Origin: a virus
Lineage: Duplodnaviria > Heunggongvirae > Uroviricota > Caudoviricetes
Virus record (IMG/VR): IMGVR_UViG_2563366924_000001
Coordinates: 1 to 5,046 of that record
Length of the DNA: 5,046 nt
Direction: 5' to 3' (one strand)
In this document: positions 1 to 4,962 of the stretch, piece by piece
Layout: each line of letters begins with the position of its first letter
Numbering within the stretch: the first letter of the stretch is position 1
Translations under genes and position numbers: made by a program
The notes under the pieces: generated by a model
What the model saw: only the letters and a program-made list of their open reading frames with translations
Told to the model about the DNA's origin: nothing
Databases searched by the model: none

Positions 1-312
1 GATAAGTTGCTGTGTCCGTTGCTTCAACATCGCATTCTCCGCCGCCAGCGCCGAAAACTTCTCGTGTGCCAACTTAACAGCTGCATCAGCCTGCTTAATT
101 GACTCAGTCGCTTTCTGGTGGTCTTCGGCCAGCCCTGCTAAATCAGCCTCCAGTTCGGCTAGGCGTTCATTTAATGCATCTCGTTCATCCAGTAGAGCCA
201 GCACAACCTGAGGTGTGACTTTCATACGAAATGCCAGCAATTTTTGAGGTGTTGCTACTGTTTCAATTGCTACTGCTGCCTCACGCAGTACCTGATAGTC
301 AATCTTGCTCAC
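1..312 (-). CDS. Partial CDS (N-terminal 104 codons, continues beyond the left edge); coiled-coil, possibly ead/Ea22-like
   Basis: Hand translation of the reverse complement of 1..312 gives an open frame with no stop: (V/M)[103 protein letters not shown]... The GTG start overlaps the upstream stop (GTGA). The DYQ.LREAA and VLALLDE segments recall Ea22-like prophage proteins (memory only). Confidence 0.5.
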   Translation of the reverse strand, partial: MSKIDYQVLREAAVAIETVATPQKLLAFRMKVTPQVVLALLDERDALNERLAELEADLAGLAEDHQKATESIKQADAAVKLAHEKFSALAAENAMLKQRTQQLI

Positions 313-983
313 TGGTTGCCTCCTTTGCGAATCTGTTCCGCCCATTCTTCAAGGGATTTCTCCGCATATTCACCAGATAGGCCATCAATCGGATGCGCTT
401 CATTAGCCAACTCTTCTTTCGCTGACAAAATCATGCGTGTAACGTCGAAAACTTCACGCAAAGACTTATTGATAAATCCGTGATTGAACGCAGCAGCAAG
501 ACGGCTGGCGGTATAGTTAATCCCCTCGTTGCGTGCTTCCGCACGTACTTCAGCCAGGAAAGCGTCGGTAGCTGGGGTTTGGACTTTTTCGTATTGGTAT
601 TCCGTATCGCCAAGGTCGTTAATTATGTTTCTCACCAGGTTGGACTCCACAGCCTTCAGCCCCGCATTCTCAGCAGCCAGCGTATTGCGTTCATGAGCAA
701 GTTTTTCTGTTTCTTCTTGCGCCAGTTTGTTGACCTGTTCAGCTACTTCCATGAGTTCGTTAATCACATTTATCTTTGCAGCCAGCGCCGAGCACTTGGC
801 TTCAAGGTTGTCAATCGTGATTCCTGCAGAACGACACTCCCGCAACGCCGTTTCTAGTTTTGATTCAAGTTCACCGAACTTACGGACAAGATATTCAGCG
901 TTTGTTTCGTTAACTTTTAAATCTCGCGGGATGCATTTACCTTTCAGAAATCCATCCATCTCAATTAGTGTCATTTGTTTCAT
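309..983 (-). CDS. Hypothetical coiled-coil protein, about 224 aa (phage b-region / Ea-type accessory protein)
   Basis: Long ORF with heptad-like A/E/L/K-rich composition in the central 150 residues. Start placed at the ATG at 983 (ATGA coupling with the upstream ORF); the track's start at 1001 is a GTG. Stop TGA 311..309 overlaps the GTG start of the next ORF (GTGA). Confidence 0.65.
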
Positions 984-1144
984 TTCTTCCCACTCCGCCA
1001 CATCGCATTCAGATATTTGTTGTCATTAACAGAACCGAAACTCTTTCTCTTAAGCAATTCCTCTCTCGATGGCATTGGCTTTACGCGTTGGCGAATAATC
1101 ATTTCTGCCGGAAGAATGCCGGGATTGTATGCAAGTCCTCTCAT
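980..1144 (-). CDS. Hypothetical small protein, 54 aa
   Basis: Found by hand (below track cut-off). ATG at 1144 preceded by SD AAGAGGA with a 7-nt spacer. Stop TGA (982..980) overlaps the ATG at 983 of the next gene (ATGA). Translation: [54 protein letters not shown]. Confidence 0.5.
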
Positions 1145-1486: not shown

Positions 1487-1969
1487 TTATTTGATAAGAA
1501 GTGAAGGTTTCCCAACTTTGAGTTGAGCGCCGGGGATATTTATTCCTGCTTTTAGTTGGTGTTTGATTGCCAGTTTGTCGGCTTTAATTGTCGTTTCAAA
1601 CTCAACGTATTCAGGAGGAAGGGCGCTTGAGTCGATTATTTCTACAATTTCTGACGGTTTGCGGATTGTTACCTGGTGAATACCTGCTCGAATATTTTTC
1701 TTGCCAACCATTTCAAGCGATGACGCTATATATGATTTGATGCTGTCAATCTTATTTTGGATTACTGCGGCTCGCTCATTCAGTGACTTTGCCTCTTCCT
1801 TGAGGCGTTCAGCATAACCAGATTCATTTTTAATGACGGAAAGAAGTTGCTCTATTTTATCGGTAAATTCTCCTTCCATGCCTTCTATTGTGTCAGCAAT
1901 CATCTCTGGCTCTAAATCTGAATCCATCAGCTTTGCGTATTCATTGGCTATTTCATACAGTTTGCTCAC
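1487..1969 (-). CDS. Gp157-like / Gam-like recombination-associated protein, about 160 aa
   Basis: ORF immediately downstream of recT, overlapping it by 17 nt. Start re-placed to the GTG at 1969, which has SD GGAGG and a 6-nt spacer; the track's TTG at 1975 sits directly against the SD. Size, coiled-coil N-terminal half and position next to RecT fit Siphovirus Gp157-type proteins (Pfam PF05565); the family call is from memory only. Confidence 0.7.
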   Translation of the reverse strand: MSKLYEIANEYAKLMDSDLEPEMIADTIEGMEGEFTDKIEQLLSVIKNESGYAERLKEEAKSLNERAAVIQNKIDSIKSYIASSLEMVGKKNIRAGIHQVTIRKPSEIVEIIDSSALPPEYVEFETTIKADKLAIKHQLKAGINIPGAQLKVGKPSLLIK

Positions 1970-2864
1970 TGGCAACCTCCAGTTTCGCTTTGCATTCTGT
2001 GTAAATGGCTTGTACGTTCTGCTGCAATTTCATTCCAGATGTCAGGCGATATGCTTCTGCAAAATATCGCTTCAAATCATCCATGTTTTCTGCCTGAGCC
2101 ATTTCATCACAAAGAAGTTGTGCTTTTTCCGTTATTTCCTGCTGGCGTTTCCTTTCATCTTCGCGGATATCTTCCTCTGATTTGTGCGGCATAACTGGTT
2201 CAGTCCACACACCTTCTTCTTCGTTTAGTACGTGAATAGCACTATCAAGACGTGATGCCTTAGGCCAATACTTGCTTGCACGCTTTACGACCGTCTTTCG
2301 CGCCATCTCATTCCAGTGATTTACCCATGGTCCTTTATCGCTGAATGCCGCCTTGCTTGTTTTCCTTACAGCCTCAATTTCAGCCAGACTCATCTCTTCC
2401 GTTAGATAATCACCTGCTGGCGTCTTAACTGTGCAGTAAACACCAACTATATCGCCACGATCACCGAAGGCGTTGTATTTATGGGTTGGTGCTTTATCAA
2501 GTCCGTTTGACTCATAAGTATCGTTAGCATGAACAAGCTTTGCCTGACCCCATGAGATAACACCAGACTCCATTGCAATATGGAGCAATCCCATATAGCT
2601 GATATCAAGGCAAACCATGCCGTCGCGAGGAACCAGATAAGCCAGTTTGCTGGCCGGGTTTAAGGTGATGCCGATCGCCGCAACATTGATGATAGCGTTC
2701 TGTGCGCTGGTTGGATTTGCCAGTGCTGTTTTAGCCAGGTAATCGTTTTTCTGGAAATACTGAATTGCAAACTGGCTTTCCTTAGCCCATGTCACCGTCT
2801 GTTCAGTCAATGCTCCGCAGAATAACTGCTCCTGCTGTTTAACGAATTCAACGATATTGCTCAT
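1953..2864 (-). CDS. recT: RecT-family single-strand annealing protein (recombinase), 303 aa
   Basis: Contains the RecT-type motif KGPWVNHWNEMARKTVVKRASKYWP (compare Rac RecT NGPWVTHWEEMAKKTAIRRLFKYLP, from memory). SD GGAGA 6 nt before the ATG. Acidic C-terminal extension. Sits in the recombination module of the pL operon. Confidence 0.85.
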   Translation of the reverse strand: MSNIVEFVKQQEQLFCGALTEQTVTWAKESQFAIQYFQKNDYLAKTALANPTSAQNAIINVAAIGITLNPASKLAYLVPRDGMVCLDISYMGLLHIAMESGVISWGQAKLVHANDTYESNGLDKAPTHKYNAFGDRGDIVGVYCTVKTPAGDYLTEEMSLAEIEAVRKTSKAAFSDKGPWVNHWNEMARKTVVKRASKYWPKASRLDSAIHVLNEEEGVWTEPVMPHKSEEDIREDERKRQQEITEKAQLLCDEMAQAENMDDLKRYFAEAYRLTSGMKLQQNVQAIYTECKAKLEVASEQTV

Positions 2865-3172
2865 GCTGCTTCTCCAAAAATGTGTCTGCGTTTAAATATT
2901 GCGAAGGCATATTCAGCCTTAACTCTTTCGGTTATTGCATCCCAGAACCATTCAGCGGCTTTTTCCTGATAGTTACAGTCATCATCTTCCAGCCAGTCGA
3001 TAGCGTCCTTAGTGTGTTCATCTGGTTTATATGAGCGAAGCATTTCGCTTATTGGGTCGCAACGTTTGCAGAGGCGATCAACTTCACTGTTGATTCGTTC
3101 GTAATCTTCATCAGTAAAACTTGCGATAATTTGCGATATTTCACGCTTATCATTCAGAGTCAGAATCATCAT
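2861..3172 (-). CDS. Hypothetical 103-aa acidic protein, translationally coupled to recT; possible host-nuclease inhibitor by position (inference)
   Basis: ATGATG start with SD AGGAGA. Its TGA stop overlaps the recT ATG (ATGA). Occupies the position held by gam (lambda) or abc (P22) directly upstream of the annealing-protein gene. No family recognised. Confidence 0.7.
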   Translation of the reverse strand: MMILTLNDKREISQIIASFTDEDYERINSEVDRLCKRCDPISEMLRSYKPDEHTKDAIDWLEDDDCNYQEKAAEWFWDAITERVKAEYAFAIFKRRHIFGEAA

Positions 3173-3257
3173 CTTTCTCCTGTTCTTTGTGCTGATTGAG
3201 CATTTTGTTCATCTGACGAATGAATTCTTCGTCTGACCATGTATCCGCAATACTCAT
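3144..3257 (-). CDS. Hypothetical small acidic protein, 37 aa
   Basis: Found by hand. ATG at 3257 overlaps the stop of the upstream 54-aa ORF (ATGA). Translation: MSIADTWSDEEFIRQMNKMLNQHKEQEKDDDSDSE. Overlaps the start of the next gene by 29 nt in another frame. Short and low-complexity, so uncertain. Confidence 0.35.
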
Positions 3258-3418
3258 TGCTTAACGACCTTAATCAGTTGAGTTACCTCAATGATGTCCT
3301 CGCATAAATCCGAGTACTGAAATGGGCCGCAGTTGTGAGAGTTAGTGCGTCTGGCGAAAGCCATTCTTCTAAGCTCTTTCAGGGCTTCTTCCAGTTCCTC
3401 GTAAGTTGGTTTTTTCAT
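3254..3418 (-). CDS. Hypothetical small protein, 54 aa (occupies the position of kil in lambda)
   Basis: Below the ORF-track length cut-off and found by hand. ATG at 3418 overlaps the cIII-like stop as ATGA, and its own stop overlaps the next ATG as ATGA. Translation: MKKPTYEELEEALKELRRMAFARRTNSHNCGPFQYSDLCEDIIEVTQLIKVVKQ. Confidence 0.5.
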   Translation of the reverse strand: MKKPTYEELEEALKELRRMAFARRTNSHNCGPFQYSDLCEDIIEVTQLIKVVKQ

Positions 3419-3585
3419 GGCTGTACCTTTTGATTCAGAAACTCAACAAGACGATCCAGCAAGCTCTTAACGCGAGGTTGTTTAAAGTCTGCTCCGGTTA
3501 AAATATTTTTTCGTGAATGCTGTACCGATAAAATCGGGTTGAAAGGGCGAACCGATGCCGCCCCTGCAATAGCGAACTGTTGCAT
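3415..3585 (-). CDS. cIII: cIII-like small regulatory protein (FtsH/HflB protease inhibitor family), 56 aa
   Basis: ATG at 3585 preceded by SD AGGAG with a 6-nt spacer. N-terminus MQQFAIAG resembles lambda cIII MQYAIAG, and ...SLLDRLVEFLNQ resembles the cIII central helix (recalled, not searched). Position after tL and before the recombination genes matches lambda. The 91-aa track ORF is this gene with a spurious TTG-initiated extension that runs through the terminator. Confidence 0.55.
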   Translation of the reverse strand: MQQFAIAGAASVRPFNPILSVQHSRKNILTGADFKQPRVKSLLDRLVEFLNQKVQP

Positions 3586-3650
3586 AGGATGCTCCTTCTG
3601 TTTGATTGCATAACGAAAACGCCTCGAGTGAAGCGTTATTGGTATGCATA

Positions 3651-3675
3651 TAAAAAAGCCCTCACATCGGAGGGC
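3651..3675 (-). terminator. Rho-independent terminator on the minus strand (tL-like), between the accessory cassette and the cIII-like gene
   Basis: Minus-strand RNA: GCCCUC-CGAUGU-GAGGGC followed by UUUUUUA. That is a 6-bp GC-rich stem (plus 3658-3663 / 3670-3675), a 6-nt loop and a 6-U tail (complement of plus 3652-3657). Confidence 0.6.
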
Positions 3676-3737
3676 AAAGAAGATTTCCAATAATCAGAAC
3701 AAGTCGGCTCCTGTTTAGTTACGAGCGACATTGCTCC

Positions 3738-4330: not shown

Positions 4331-4519
4331 TTAACTATCATCAATACATGGCACTTTATTCCAGTCGATATCGTTTTTATTGTCGTCCCACATGTCTTTG
4401 TTTTTGTATTTCTCGCTACATCCTAGGCAAATGTTGTATGGCCTACCGATAAGGTTTAACGAAATACGTTGCATTTCATTTGATTCAAACATGTATCCAC
4501 AGAACTGACATTTATGCAT
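4331..4519 (-). CDS. Small zinc-ribbon protein, 62 aa, acidic C-terminal tail; function unknown (accessory/moron gene)
   Basis: ORF with CxxC (C4,C7) and CxxC (C31,C34) separated by 23 residues. SD GAGG about 8 nt upstream of the ATG. Lies in a low-GC segment immediately downstream of N. Confidence 0.6.
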   Translation of the reverse strand: MHKCQFCGYMFESNEMQRISLNLIGRPYNICLGCSEKYKNKDMWDDNKNDIDWNKVPCIDDS

Positions 4520-4578
4520 ATCTCACCCCTCATACAGTAGCTTACTGCCTAATTTCATTTTCTGGCGACCAACACAAG

Positions 4579-4962
4579 TCACCTCGCCGTCAGTTGTTTT
4601 GATTTCCGGTAGCCTGCCGCGTAAATGGCTACGTTTGGAAGACATACACCAGTTTCTGGTTGCTTATGTCCAAACTCATTCGCGTACACAATGGCCGCTC
4701 GCTCCAGATTGCGTCTGTATTCTTTCTGTTGCCAGATCACGTCCTGTGCCATGAACTTAATTGGCTTAGCGTCTTCTATGCGCTCAGGCGTTTCGTGAGT
4801 ACCTTTAGCCTGAATCTGCGCTCTGCTTAGAGTAGGGCGGTGTAATACTTCTGAACTTATTGCTTCTTCGCGGGCCAGTACGCCGTTAGCTAATGCCTTT
4901 GCCTTTAAACGCTCACGACGACGAGAACGTGAATTGCCTTTGAACTGAGTTCTGCGTGTCAT
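4579..4962 (-). CDS. N: N-type transcription antitermination protein (P22 gene 24 / lambda N family), 127 aa
   Basis: N-terminal arginine-rich motif (SRSRRRERLKAKALA) of the kind that binds boxB RNA in N proteins. C-terminus ...LPNVAIYAAGYRKSKQLTAR closely resembles my recollection of the P22 gp24 C-terminus. Strong SD (AGGAGG, 5-nt spacer) before the ATG at 4962. It is the first gene of a leftward operon, followed by a terminator and a cIII-like gene. Confidence 0.8.
   Translation of the reverse strand: MTRRTQFKGNSRSRRRERLKAKALANGVLAREEAISSEVLHRPTLSRAQIQAKGTHETPERIEDAKPIKFMAQDVIWQQKEYRRNLERAAIVYANEFGHKQPETGVCLPNVAIYAAGYRKSKQLTAR

Follow-up and report, generated by a model that had tools for sequence, protein, structure and literature searches.

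The known systems closest to the locus studied here come from lambdoid phages. Kil of the lambda/HK97 type (PF06301) occupies a slot directly after cIII and is coupled to its neighbours on both sides by ATGA stop/start overlaps, and for lambda Kil a helix-loop-helix shape has been predicted. In the gam-bet-exo module of lambda, as in other lambdoid recombination modules, a small gene lies directly upstream of the gene for the annealing protein, and the whole module is tightly packed with overlapping genes. In P22, the very small gene arf (47 aa; PF17585, phrog_2445) lies between kil and the annealing-protein gene erf and overlaps its neighbours. According to PMC12315714, which cites Poteete 1991, Arf aids recombination and is not essential for it; the same paper classes the module of HK140 as SAP-4 (RecT) plus MuGam and lists MuGam as the anti-RecBCD protein of this module type. 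Finally, in HK97 the gene gp42 or gp42.1 (phrog_2123, annotated as 'recombinase') is ATGA-coupled to kil, heads the recombination module and extends to 83 aa before erf.

We asked how a window of 5,046 nt, that is, the whole stretch of viral DNA that was analysed, compares to these systems. The window is an ordinary portion of the early-left operon of a lambda-like prophage (Table 1); the identity of the operon comes from the Pfam and PHROG family matches of N, cIII, RecT and Gp157. All genes of the chain are on the minus strand, in the order N and, further along, a terminator, cIII, the 54-aa gene, the 35-aa gene, the 102-aa gene, recT and the Mu-Gam-like Gp157 gene. The same gene order is found in prophages and phages that are 98% identical. 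The recombination module is of the HK140 type as classed in PMC12315714, and it contains no nuclease gene.

Table 1. Features of the early-left operon in the window (positions as in the window; E, E-value of the match)
Feature	Position	Strand	Family matches
N-type antiterminator, P22 gp24-like; head of the operon	4579..4962	-	Pfam N_peptide E 2e-15; phrog_271 E 3e-39
Terminator-like hairpin GCCCTCCGATGTGAGGGC with T-run, just 5' of cIII	3658..3675	-	
Second, weaker terminator-like hairpin	3618..3637		
cIII-like gene, 56 aa, own AGGAG Shine-Dalgarno; opens the coupled block	3415..3585 (ATG 3585, stop 3415)	-	phrog_550 'CIII anti-termination' E 5.9e-19
54-aa gene, helix-loop-helix protein; mobile accessory gene in the Kil slot	3254..3418	-	phrog_32687 E 6e-44
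35-aa micro-gene	3150..3257	-	phrog_17766 E 2e-13; phrog_2123 E 4e-7; phrog_2445 (Arf) E 0.05
103-aa ORF, probably 102 aa from ATG 3169; acidic helical protein	2861..3172	-	phrog_3486 E 4e-59
recT, 303 aa, single-strand annealing protein	1953..2864	-	Pfam RecT E 2.9e-32; phrog_148 E 2.5e-92
Siphovirus Gp157 / Mu-Gam-like gene, 160 aa from GTG 1969, downstream of recT	1487..1969	-	Pfam Sipho_Gp157 (PF05565) E 2.4e-37; phrog_253 ('Mu Gam-like end protection') E 5e-54

The cIII-like ORF matches a PHROG family and no Pfam family, Lambda_CIII included, at E <= 0.1. It is annotated with the same length, 56 aa, in the relatives L001, HK140 and SEN22, and from what is established for the lambda CIII family we take its product to be of the FtsH-inhibitor type. 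A terminator is annotated in the HK97 and mEpX1 records at the site equivalent to the hairpin upstream of cIII. With this hairpin in front of it, the block of small genes would depend on N antitermination. No RNA family from Rfam was found within the window at E <= 1.

The reading that we favour, and consider rather probable, is that the chain of small genes forms the translationally coupled centre of an early-left (pL) operon that depends on N, in a lambdoid E. coli prophage resembling HK140 and Kapi1, that the products of the 35-aa and 102-aa genes serve the recombination module as accessories and are not host-killing peptides, and that end protection is provided by Gp157. The accessory role is suggested by the position of the genes, by the recombination aid given by P22 Arf (as described in PMC12315714) and by a weak profile match to Arf.

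The original prediction was of a chain of four start/stop junctions running into recT. The chain is indeed there on the minus strand, and its three ATGA overlaps were confirmed: the one at 3418..3415 is common to the cIII-like stop and the 54-aa start, the one at 3257..3254 to the 54-aa stop and the start of the 35-aa ORF, and the one at 2864..2861 to the 103-aa stop and the recT start. However, the details of the remaining junction need correction. The ORF given as 37 aa is 35 aa long, and its overlap with the 103-aa gene is not 29 nt but 23 nt (3172..3150), or 20 nt if counted from the ATG at 3169; a micro-ORF overlapping the next gene by 29 nt occurs only in one relative, L102. Furthermore, the chain is longer than first noted, with an overlap of 17 nt between recT and the Gp157 gene, whose GTG start was taken from RefSeq homologues.

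With three 4-base stop/start junctions and longer overlaps at two more, the window has the pattern known from ATGA-coupled phage operons, from which it does not differ. The frequency of such overlaps is normal for these genomes and the organisation is routine. For example, 17 of the 70 adjacent CDS pairs of HK140 overlap by 4 nt, and runs of three and four are found elsewhere in that genome; in the window, 7 of 12 junctions are overlapping, as read from the ORF list and the sequence. Since stop and start codons overlap without intercistronic space, as in translationally coupled operons, we infer that the block is translationally coupled. Judged from this anatomy, ribosomes would load at the cIII Shine-Dalgarno and be handed from gene to gene at the ATGA overlaps; the 102-aa gene has, in addition, a strong AGGAG of its own within the 35-aa ORF. 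The genes of the block would therefore be expressed together, in step, once N has antiterminated.

Next, we looked at whether the small ORFs are genes at all, beginning with the shortest. Homologues of the 35-aa ORF were gathered by tblastn and locus mining. The ORF sits at the joint of the cIII/kil side with the recombination module and is intact in 85 of 85 related loci, where it follows cIII, Kil or the 54-aa gene. Its first ~17-28 codons are conserved (MS[IF][AT]D[TN]WSDEEFIRQM...), whereas the tail, in which the next gene has its Shine-Dalgarno and start, is variable and set by the adjoining module. The core has a pN/pS of 0.45, while the two alternative frames, which carry stops, give 1.13 and 1.34, and within the motif (residues 7-13) polymorphism is purely synonymous. 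Diverged homologues of 32-36 aa keep a motif [W/M][S/T][D/E]x[E/Q/A]F with an invariant Phe, and their indels are in frame. Because all 85 loci are open, indels stay in frame, the core is constrained and motif changes are synonymous only, the ORF is judged to be coding. Conservation of the first ~50 nt at the DNA or RNA level was considered as the reason for its persistence and rejected, as synonymous sites are saturated in diverged relatives. A programmed frameshift joining the 35-aa and 102-aa frames was rejected as well: the two frames are related by +1 in four lineages and otherwise in ENT47670, where the junction of micro-ORF and next gene is a plain ATGA. Across lineages the length of this overlap ranges from 4 to 29 nt.

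The 35-aa ORF resembles P22 Arf in being a very small, overlapping gene between the kil slot and an annealing module and in its N-terminal acidic-aromatic motif (WSDEEFIRQM, FSDEEFIALI in Arf). On the other hand, the likeness is confined to about 15 residues of proteins that are 35 and 47 aa long, and the 35-aa ORF precedes the 102-aa gene and RecT whereas Arf precedes Erf. The Pfam Arf profile (PF17585) is unmatched at E <= 0.1, and the PHROG Arf profile gives only the weak match listed in Table 1. Aligning the 35-aa family to Arf with hhalign gave P 8.8e-4 and a probability of 23% over 15 columns; with composition-preserving shuffles the match was marginal for four members (P about 0.004-0.01) and not significant for two. 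Homology to Arf is thus only suggestive. What the comparisons point to is an ORF at the position of Arf with a weak resemblance to Arf and none to a host-killing peptide.

In HK97 gp42 the first 17-18 codons are identical to those of the 35-aa ORF and the first ~50 nt near-identical, and both are ATGA-coupled to the gene in front of them at the head of the recombination module; unlike gp42, the 35-aa ORF ends inside the 102-aa gene. The same N-terminal block heads RecT (HK140), RecE-like (SEN22), Erf (HK97, HK022) and Sak4 (BIS08P22) modules. It could be asked whether the 35-aa ORF makes a functional peptide at all, or whether it is a mosaic joint, the leftover 5' end of a gp42/Arf-like gene, kept open only as a ribosome relay. 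In that case ribosomes would be passed from cIII or kil into the recombination module that happens to follow, at its first gene. This would fit with the ~50-nt block, near-identical beside kil in about 1000 of 5426 E. coli genomes, leading into at least four module types, each with a different tail, and with the weak constraint on the ORF as a whole (pN/pS 0.4-0.7; 7 synonymous and 18 nonsynonymous variants). It would also fit HK022, where the longer gp42 frame is broken (56 aa) with its N-terminus kept, and one relative (L104) that lacks the motif ORF and yet has another short ORF spanning the gap. No Arf-like ORF is found upstream of the 102-aa homologue either in that relative or in Midgardsormr38. 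However, relatives so diverged that synonymous sites are saturated (pS 0.77) still keep the amino-acid motif and the invariant Phe, a pattern not seen in other frames, and the synonymous-only polymorphism of the motif speaks against a mere relay too. We consider a joint without peptide function possible but unlikely.

In the favoured reading, the slot after cIII is swappable, and Kil has here been replaced by the 54-aa gene, a mobile accessory encoding a helix-loop-helix protein. Among related loci the slot after cIII holds Kil, the 54-aa gene or nothing: in the close relatives Kapi1 and L102 Kil sits in exactly the place of the 54-aa gene, and true Kil was found in three relatives (L003, L102 and L104). 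That the interval corresponds to the kil-gam interval of lambda, as had been proposed, is borne out. The 54-aa protein is similar to Kil in size, its gene is ATGA-coupled on both sides and it has a predicted helical hairpin (AF2 pLDDT 80). It differs from Kil in lacking any sequence similarity and in its invariant loop with His and Cys (NSHNCGPFQY.DLCE), which Kil does not have, and its family is mostly found outside the slot. As a Kil homologue it was rejected, since the Pfam Kil profile (PF06301) is matched neither by the 54-aa nor by the 35-aa ORF. Comparing the model to the PDB with Foldseek gave generic hairpins, for example ribosomal L29 and MexA (best E 0.73).

Homologues of the 54-aa protein are 72-98% identical, nearly all 54 aa long, and come from E. 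coli, Salmonella, Klebsiella and Citrobacter. Both this gene and the micro-ORF show a coding-type substitution pattern; for the 54-aa gene, pN of 0.19 against a saturated pS of 0.8-1.0, together with the nearly constant length, shows that it is coding, and dN/dS between two relatives is 0.03. Among 5426 complete E. coli genomes, just 9 carry it in the slot next to cIII. Mostly it lies between Ead/Ea22-like genes or after replication genes, so it is not tied to the Kil slot. In these other contexts it overlaps its neighbours by 4 nt at the start in 8 of 8 cases and at the stop in 7 of 8.

For the 103-aa ORF, the ATG at 3169 is the likelier start, because homologues begin with M[I/N]LTL and RefSeq annotates 102 aa. 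The family has 47 cluster representatives in 1.84 billion proteins; members are mostly about 100-107 aa, and the rest are fragments or multi-domain proteins. In every locus examined the gene lies directly upstream of, and overlaps, a gene for RecT or a RecE-like PDDEXK nuclease. Variants of the gene are 20 synonymous and 13 nonsynonymous. No locus was found when species-representative genomes were scanned with the family alignment, and scans of viral contigs with distant homologues gave one locus only. From the sequence data at hand, the 102-aa gene is a conserved leader gene of RecT/RecE-type recombination modules. AF2 predicts five helices, with a pLDDT of 77 for the best of five models and about 50 for the remaining ones. 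A Foldseek comparison of the model to the PDB gave no significant match (best E 2.7), and a fold search in BFVD gave uncharacterised phage proteins only, one of them from Edno5. Note that the model is of moderate quality, so that these negative fold searches are weak evidence. A profile search of the PDB remained at chance level (best E 0.06, to ribosomal protein S15), and in the parts of PMC12315714 consulted the protein is not discussed. Overall, all four small ORFs look like real protein-coding genes.

It had been proposed that the unrecognised micro-proteins of this interval, the 54-aa and 35-aa products, serve host takeover, as Kil-like inhibitors of division or Gam/Abc-like inhibitors of nucleases. 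Position is what speaks for this idea: in an interval corresponding to lambda kil-gam, the 54-aa gene is exactly where relatives have Kil and encodes a predicted helix-loop-helix of roughly 50 aa, and the 102-aa gene has the position of gam relative to the annealing protein. The products themselves do not bear it out. Pfam, NCBIfam and PADLOC searches gave no meaningful matches for the small ORFs, and neither these nor fold searches gave evidence of Kil-like or Gam/Abc-like function; sequence and profile similarity to Kil, Gam or Abc was absent in the Pfam, PHROG, NCBIfam and PADLOC searches. In the searches run, the 102-aa, 54-aa and 35-aa products showed no sequence or fold similarity to the anti-RecBCD proteins Gam, GamL and Abc2 (for the 102-aa protein in Pfam, PHROG, PDB-sequence and fold searches), and fold matches are generic alpha-hairpins at E > 0.7, or none. 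The usual location of the 54-aa family at other operon positions argues against a Kil-like role, and a Mu-Gam-like gene is already present downstream. The latter is likely a better candidate for DNA-end protection (anti-RecBCD function) than any of the small ORFs, judged by its family assignment. We therefore regard the host-takeover roles as quite improbable. That the small ORFs are open merely by chance, in intergenic DNA, as their shortness, weak Shine-Dalgarno (AAGG) and lack of a curated family match might suggest, is hardly conceivable and on the sequence comparisons effectively refuted, since the ORFs leave no intergenic space, are found conserved in several genera and change in the manner of coding sequence, and none of the 85 loci is disrupted.

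Under the favoured reading, the organisation is ordinary and its accessory genes are uncharacterised. The locus illustrates the construction of lambdoid early-left operons, with tight coupling, a swappable slot after cIII (Kil, another small gene or nothing) and a conserved micro-ORF at the point where interchangeable recombination modules are joined on. A more speculative extension, to which we give little credence, is that the 35-aa and 102-aa proteins are unrecognised recombination cofactors, where the peptide would tune the contact between annealing protein and SSB and the 102-aa family would be a dedicated partner of RecT/RecE. Four unrelated module types (RecT, RecE-like, Erf and Sak4) are headed by the short acidic-aromatic peptide [W/F]-S-D-E-E-F-I, which recalls the C-terminal tail of the host's SSB, likewise acidic and ending in Phe. 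This tail is reportedly recognised by annealing proteins (bioRxiv 10.1101/2020.04.14.041095). If the two proteins were cofactors, they would provide a wider family for studying P22 Arf and its mechanism, unexplained since 1991. Moreover, RecT-type systems are used for recombineering, and missing accessories could affect its efficiency and portability.

As to the conservation and annotation of the small ORFs, stops or frameshifts, named in the original prediction as evidence against them, occurred in none of the syntenic relatives examined. The expectation that they would be missed by annotation holds in part: PGAP calls the 54-aa ORF, for which a separate PHROG exists, whereas the 35-aa ORF is often skipped; RefSeq leaves it out in L001, HK140 and SEN22, and the ENT47670 and BIS08P22 records lack it too. 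They are not unrecognised, as all are already in PHROGs and in GenBank as hypothetical proteins, the exact 35-aa sequence among them. The 35-aa ORF is called in Kapi1 and by metagenome gene callers; its systematic omission by RefSeq pipelines is a minor but real annotation point.

The minus strand carries all genes of the window (see table). The original prediction was that the genes from cIII to recT form a chain coupled by start/stop overlaps. The chain of overlaps was confirmed, and the three ATGA overlaps lie exactly at 3418..3415, 3257..3254 and 2864..2861. On the other hand, the ORF given as 37 aa is 35 aa long, and its overlap with the following gene, given as 29 nt, is 23 nt, or 20 nt if that gene begins with the ATG at 3169. 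A further overlap of 17 nt joins recT and Gp157. Of 70 pairs of neighbouring genes in HK140, a fully annotated relative, 17 overlap by 4 nt, and runs of three and four such overlaps occur elsewhere. The overlap pattern is real but ordinary; a chain packed and probably coupled in this way is normal for lambdoid pL operons.

Features of the pL-like operon, in order of transcription
Feature	Coordinates	Strand	Profile match
N antiterminator, P22 gp24-type	4962..4579	-	Pfam N_peptide 2e-15
62-aa gene (4331..4519), then 156-aa gene	after N, before hairpin	-	
Terminator-like hairpin	3675..3658	-	
cIII-like gene, 56 aa	3585..3415	-	phrog_550, 5.9e-19
54-aa ORF	3418..3254	-	
35-aa ORF	3257..3150	-	
103-aa ORF	3172..2861	-	
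recT	2864..1953	-	Pfam RecT 2.9e-32
Gp157/Mu-Gam-like gene	1969..1487	-	Pfam 2.4e-37; phrog_253 5e-54

Judged by sequence comparison, the small ORFs appear to be real. They had been called unrecognised, but are already catalogued as hypothetical proteins, and the suggestion that they serve host takeover was drawn only from where they lie. The evidence favours a mobile accessory gene in the Kil slot (the 54-aa gene) and two accessories of the recombination module (the 35-aa ORF and the 102-aa gene). For end protection, Gp157 is the likelier candidate.

The 54-aa gene is very probably genuine. Its relatives in E. coli, Salmonella, Klebsiella and Citrobacter (72-98% identity, nearly all 54 aa long) share the invariant loop NSHNCGPFQY.DLCE. 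Against the Citrobacter and Klebsiella copies we found pN 0.19 and pS 0.8-1.0, and dN/dS is 0.03 between two of these copies. Its neighbours in those genomes are Ead/Ea22-like genes on both sides or replication genes upstream, and cIII does not precede it. In all eight places examined there is a 4-nt overlap between its start and the upstream gene, and in seven of the eight its stop also overlaps the gene that follows. The AlphaFold model is a helix-loop-helix (pLDDT 80), for which Foldseek returned generic hairpins only, and the Pfam Kil profile did not match the protein.

The 901 bases of 2800..3700 match E. coli prophages at 98-99% identity. Phages HK140, mEpX1, E212 and Gally match them at ~98%, apart from one gap of ~161 nt that corresponds to the 54-aa ORF. 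HK140 has the 35-aa start directly overlapping the stop of cIII, and Kapi1 and many IMG/VR prophages have a 50-aa Kil instead of the 54-aa gene. The 54-aa gene is rare in the slot after cIII: it lies there in 3 of 84 viral loci and in 9 of 5426 complete E. coli genomes. About 20 codons at the end of cIII and six codons at the beginning of the 35-aa ORF vary together with the insert, which thus behaves like a cassette in an exchangeable slot. Elsewhere in the window, a 230-aa ORF (309..1001, -) has the ...IRKGG motif of Ead/Ea22-like mosaic genes; the same motif ends genes directly upstream of the 54-aa gene in other prophages (L090-L093).

The 35-aa ORF also appears to be real but weakly constrained. 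A check for disruption in relatives found it open in 85 of 85 related loci, irrespective of what precedes it. A 32-36-aa ORF is found at the same place next to more distantly related versions of the 103-aa gene (for example in L098, L100, the Kil-bearing L102 and, without annotation, Cronobacter phage ENT47670). These ORFs differ by in-frame indels and share an invariant Phe as well as the motif [W/M][S/T][D/E]x[E/Q/A]F. For a 14-codon core in five lineages, pS is 0.77 and pN 0.35 (ratio 0.45), against ratios of 1.13 and 1.34, with stops, in the other two frames; pairwise pN/pS over the whole ORF is 0.4-0.7. Variants among 84 close loci comprise 7 synonymous and 18 nonsynonymous changes, those in the motif (residues 7-13) being synonymous only.

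In P22 the order is kil, arf (47 aa), erf, and Arf starts MQHEFSDEEFIALI, where the 35-aa ORF has WSDEEFIRQM. The match statistics are weak (PHROG Arf profile, E 0.05; hhalign, P 8.8e-4, probability 23%; no match to Pfam PF17585; composition-preserving shuffles marginal or negative), and we therefore regard the ORF as Arf-positioned and Arf-like in motif, not as a member of the Arf family. P22 Arf helps recombination without being essential, according to a passage in PMC12315714.

Over its first ~50 nt the 35-aa ORF is nearly identical to the beginning of HK97 gp42, which is 83 aa long and stands between kil and erf. The same N-terminal block also heads RecE-like (SEN22), Erf (HK97, HK022) and Sak4 (BIS08P22) modules, with a different tail in each module type; in the window the tail contains the AGGAG and the start codon that belong to the 102-aa gene. 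HK022 (L106, 1186..1450) and a Stx1a phage (L107) have two overlapping 56-aa ORFs in place of the 83-aa gp42 of HK97, and the N-terminal MSFTDNWSDEEFIRQMKE is kept. Salmonella phage BIS08P22 (L108, 1962..2238) has an unannotated 44-aa version after the 54-aa gene. This version overlaps a gene for a 62-aa product with the ending ..NPDELPF, which resembles the host SSB tail; the gene is followed by those for a Sak4-like ATPase, a DUF669 protein and Abc2.

The ATG at 3169 is the likely start of the 102/103-aa gene, because homologues begin M[I/N]LTL and RefSeq annotates 102 aa. The family is small: a set of 1.84 billion proteins yielded 47 cluster representatives, most of ~100-107 aa. At every locus examined the next gene downstream, which it overlaps, codes for RecT or a RecE-like PDDEXK nuclease; nearly all members in the family alignment end E-[A/V]-A (window 2861..2872, -), and the stop overlaps or abuts the next start whichever of the two follows. 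Its variants are 20 synonymous versus 13 nonsynonymous. The protein model is helical, but of the five models just one is confident. No significant match came from Foldseek or from a PDB profile search, so a Gam-like fold is unsupported.

Using phmmer, the 103-aa protein (2861..3172, -) matches long proteins of saposin-B repeats; for one of them (P0088) E is 3.5e-13 over five stretches, with ~31% identity over residues 10-63 and a recurring I..EVD.LC...P.S....I.WLED pattern. The Pfam SapB models did not match the phage protein, and Foldseek with its model found no saposin.

The passages of PMC12315714 on the HK140-type module describe RecT and MuGam, without a nuclease, and make no mention of the 102-aa gene. 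The window (1487..2864, -), with RecT, a Mu-Gam-like gene and no exonuclease, matches the type as described there.

Upstream, two terminator-like hairpins lie in 3618..3675 (-), between the 156-aa gene and cIII, where a terminator is annotated in HK97 and mEpX1. The 62-aa ORF (4331..4519, -) has two Cys-x-x-Cys pairs with the look of a zinc ribbon; it matches phrog_19863, with only weak Pfam zinc-finger hints. The annotated N frame ends like P22 gp24 (..VAIYAAGYRKSKQLTAR), and a second frame over its 3' end (4523..4645, -) encodes ..GEVTCVGRQKMKLGSKLL, which we take to resemble the C-terminus of lambda and phi21 N.
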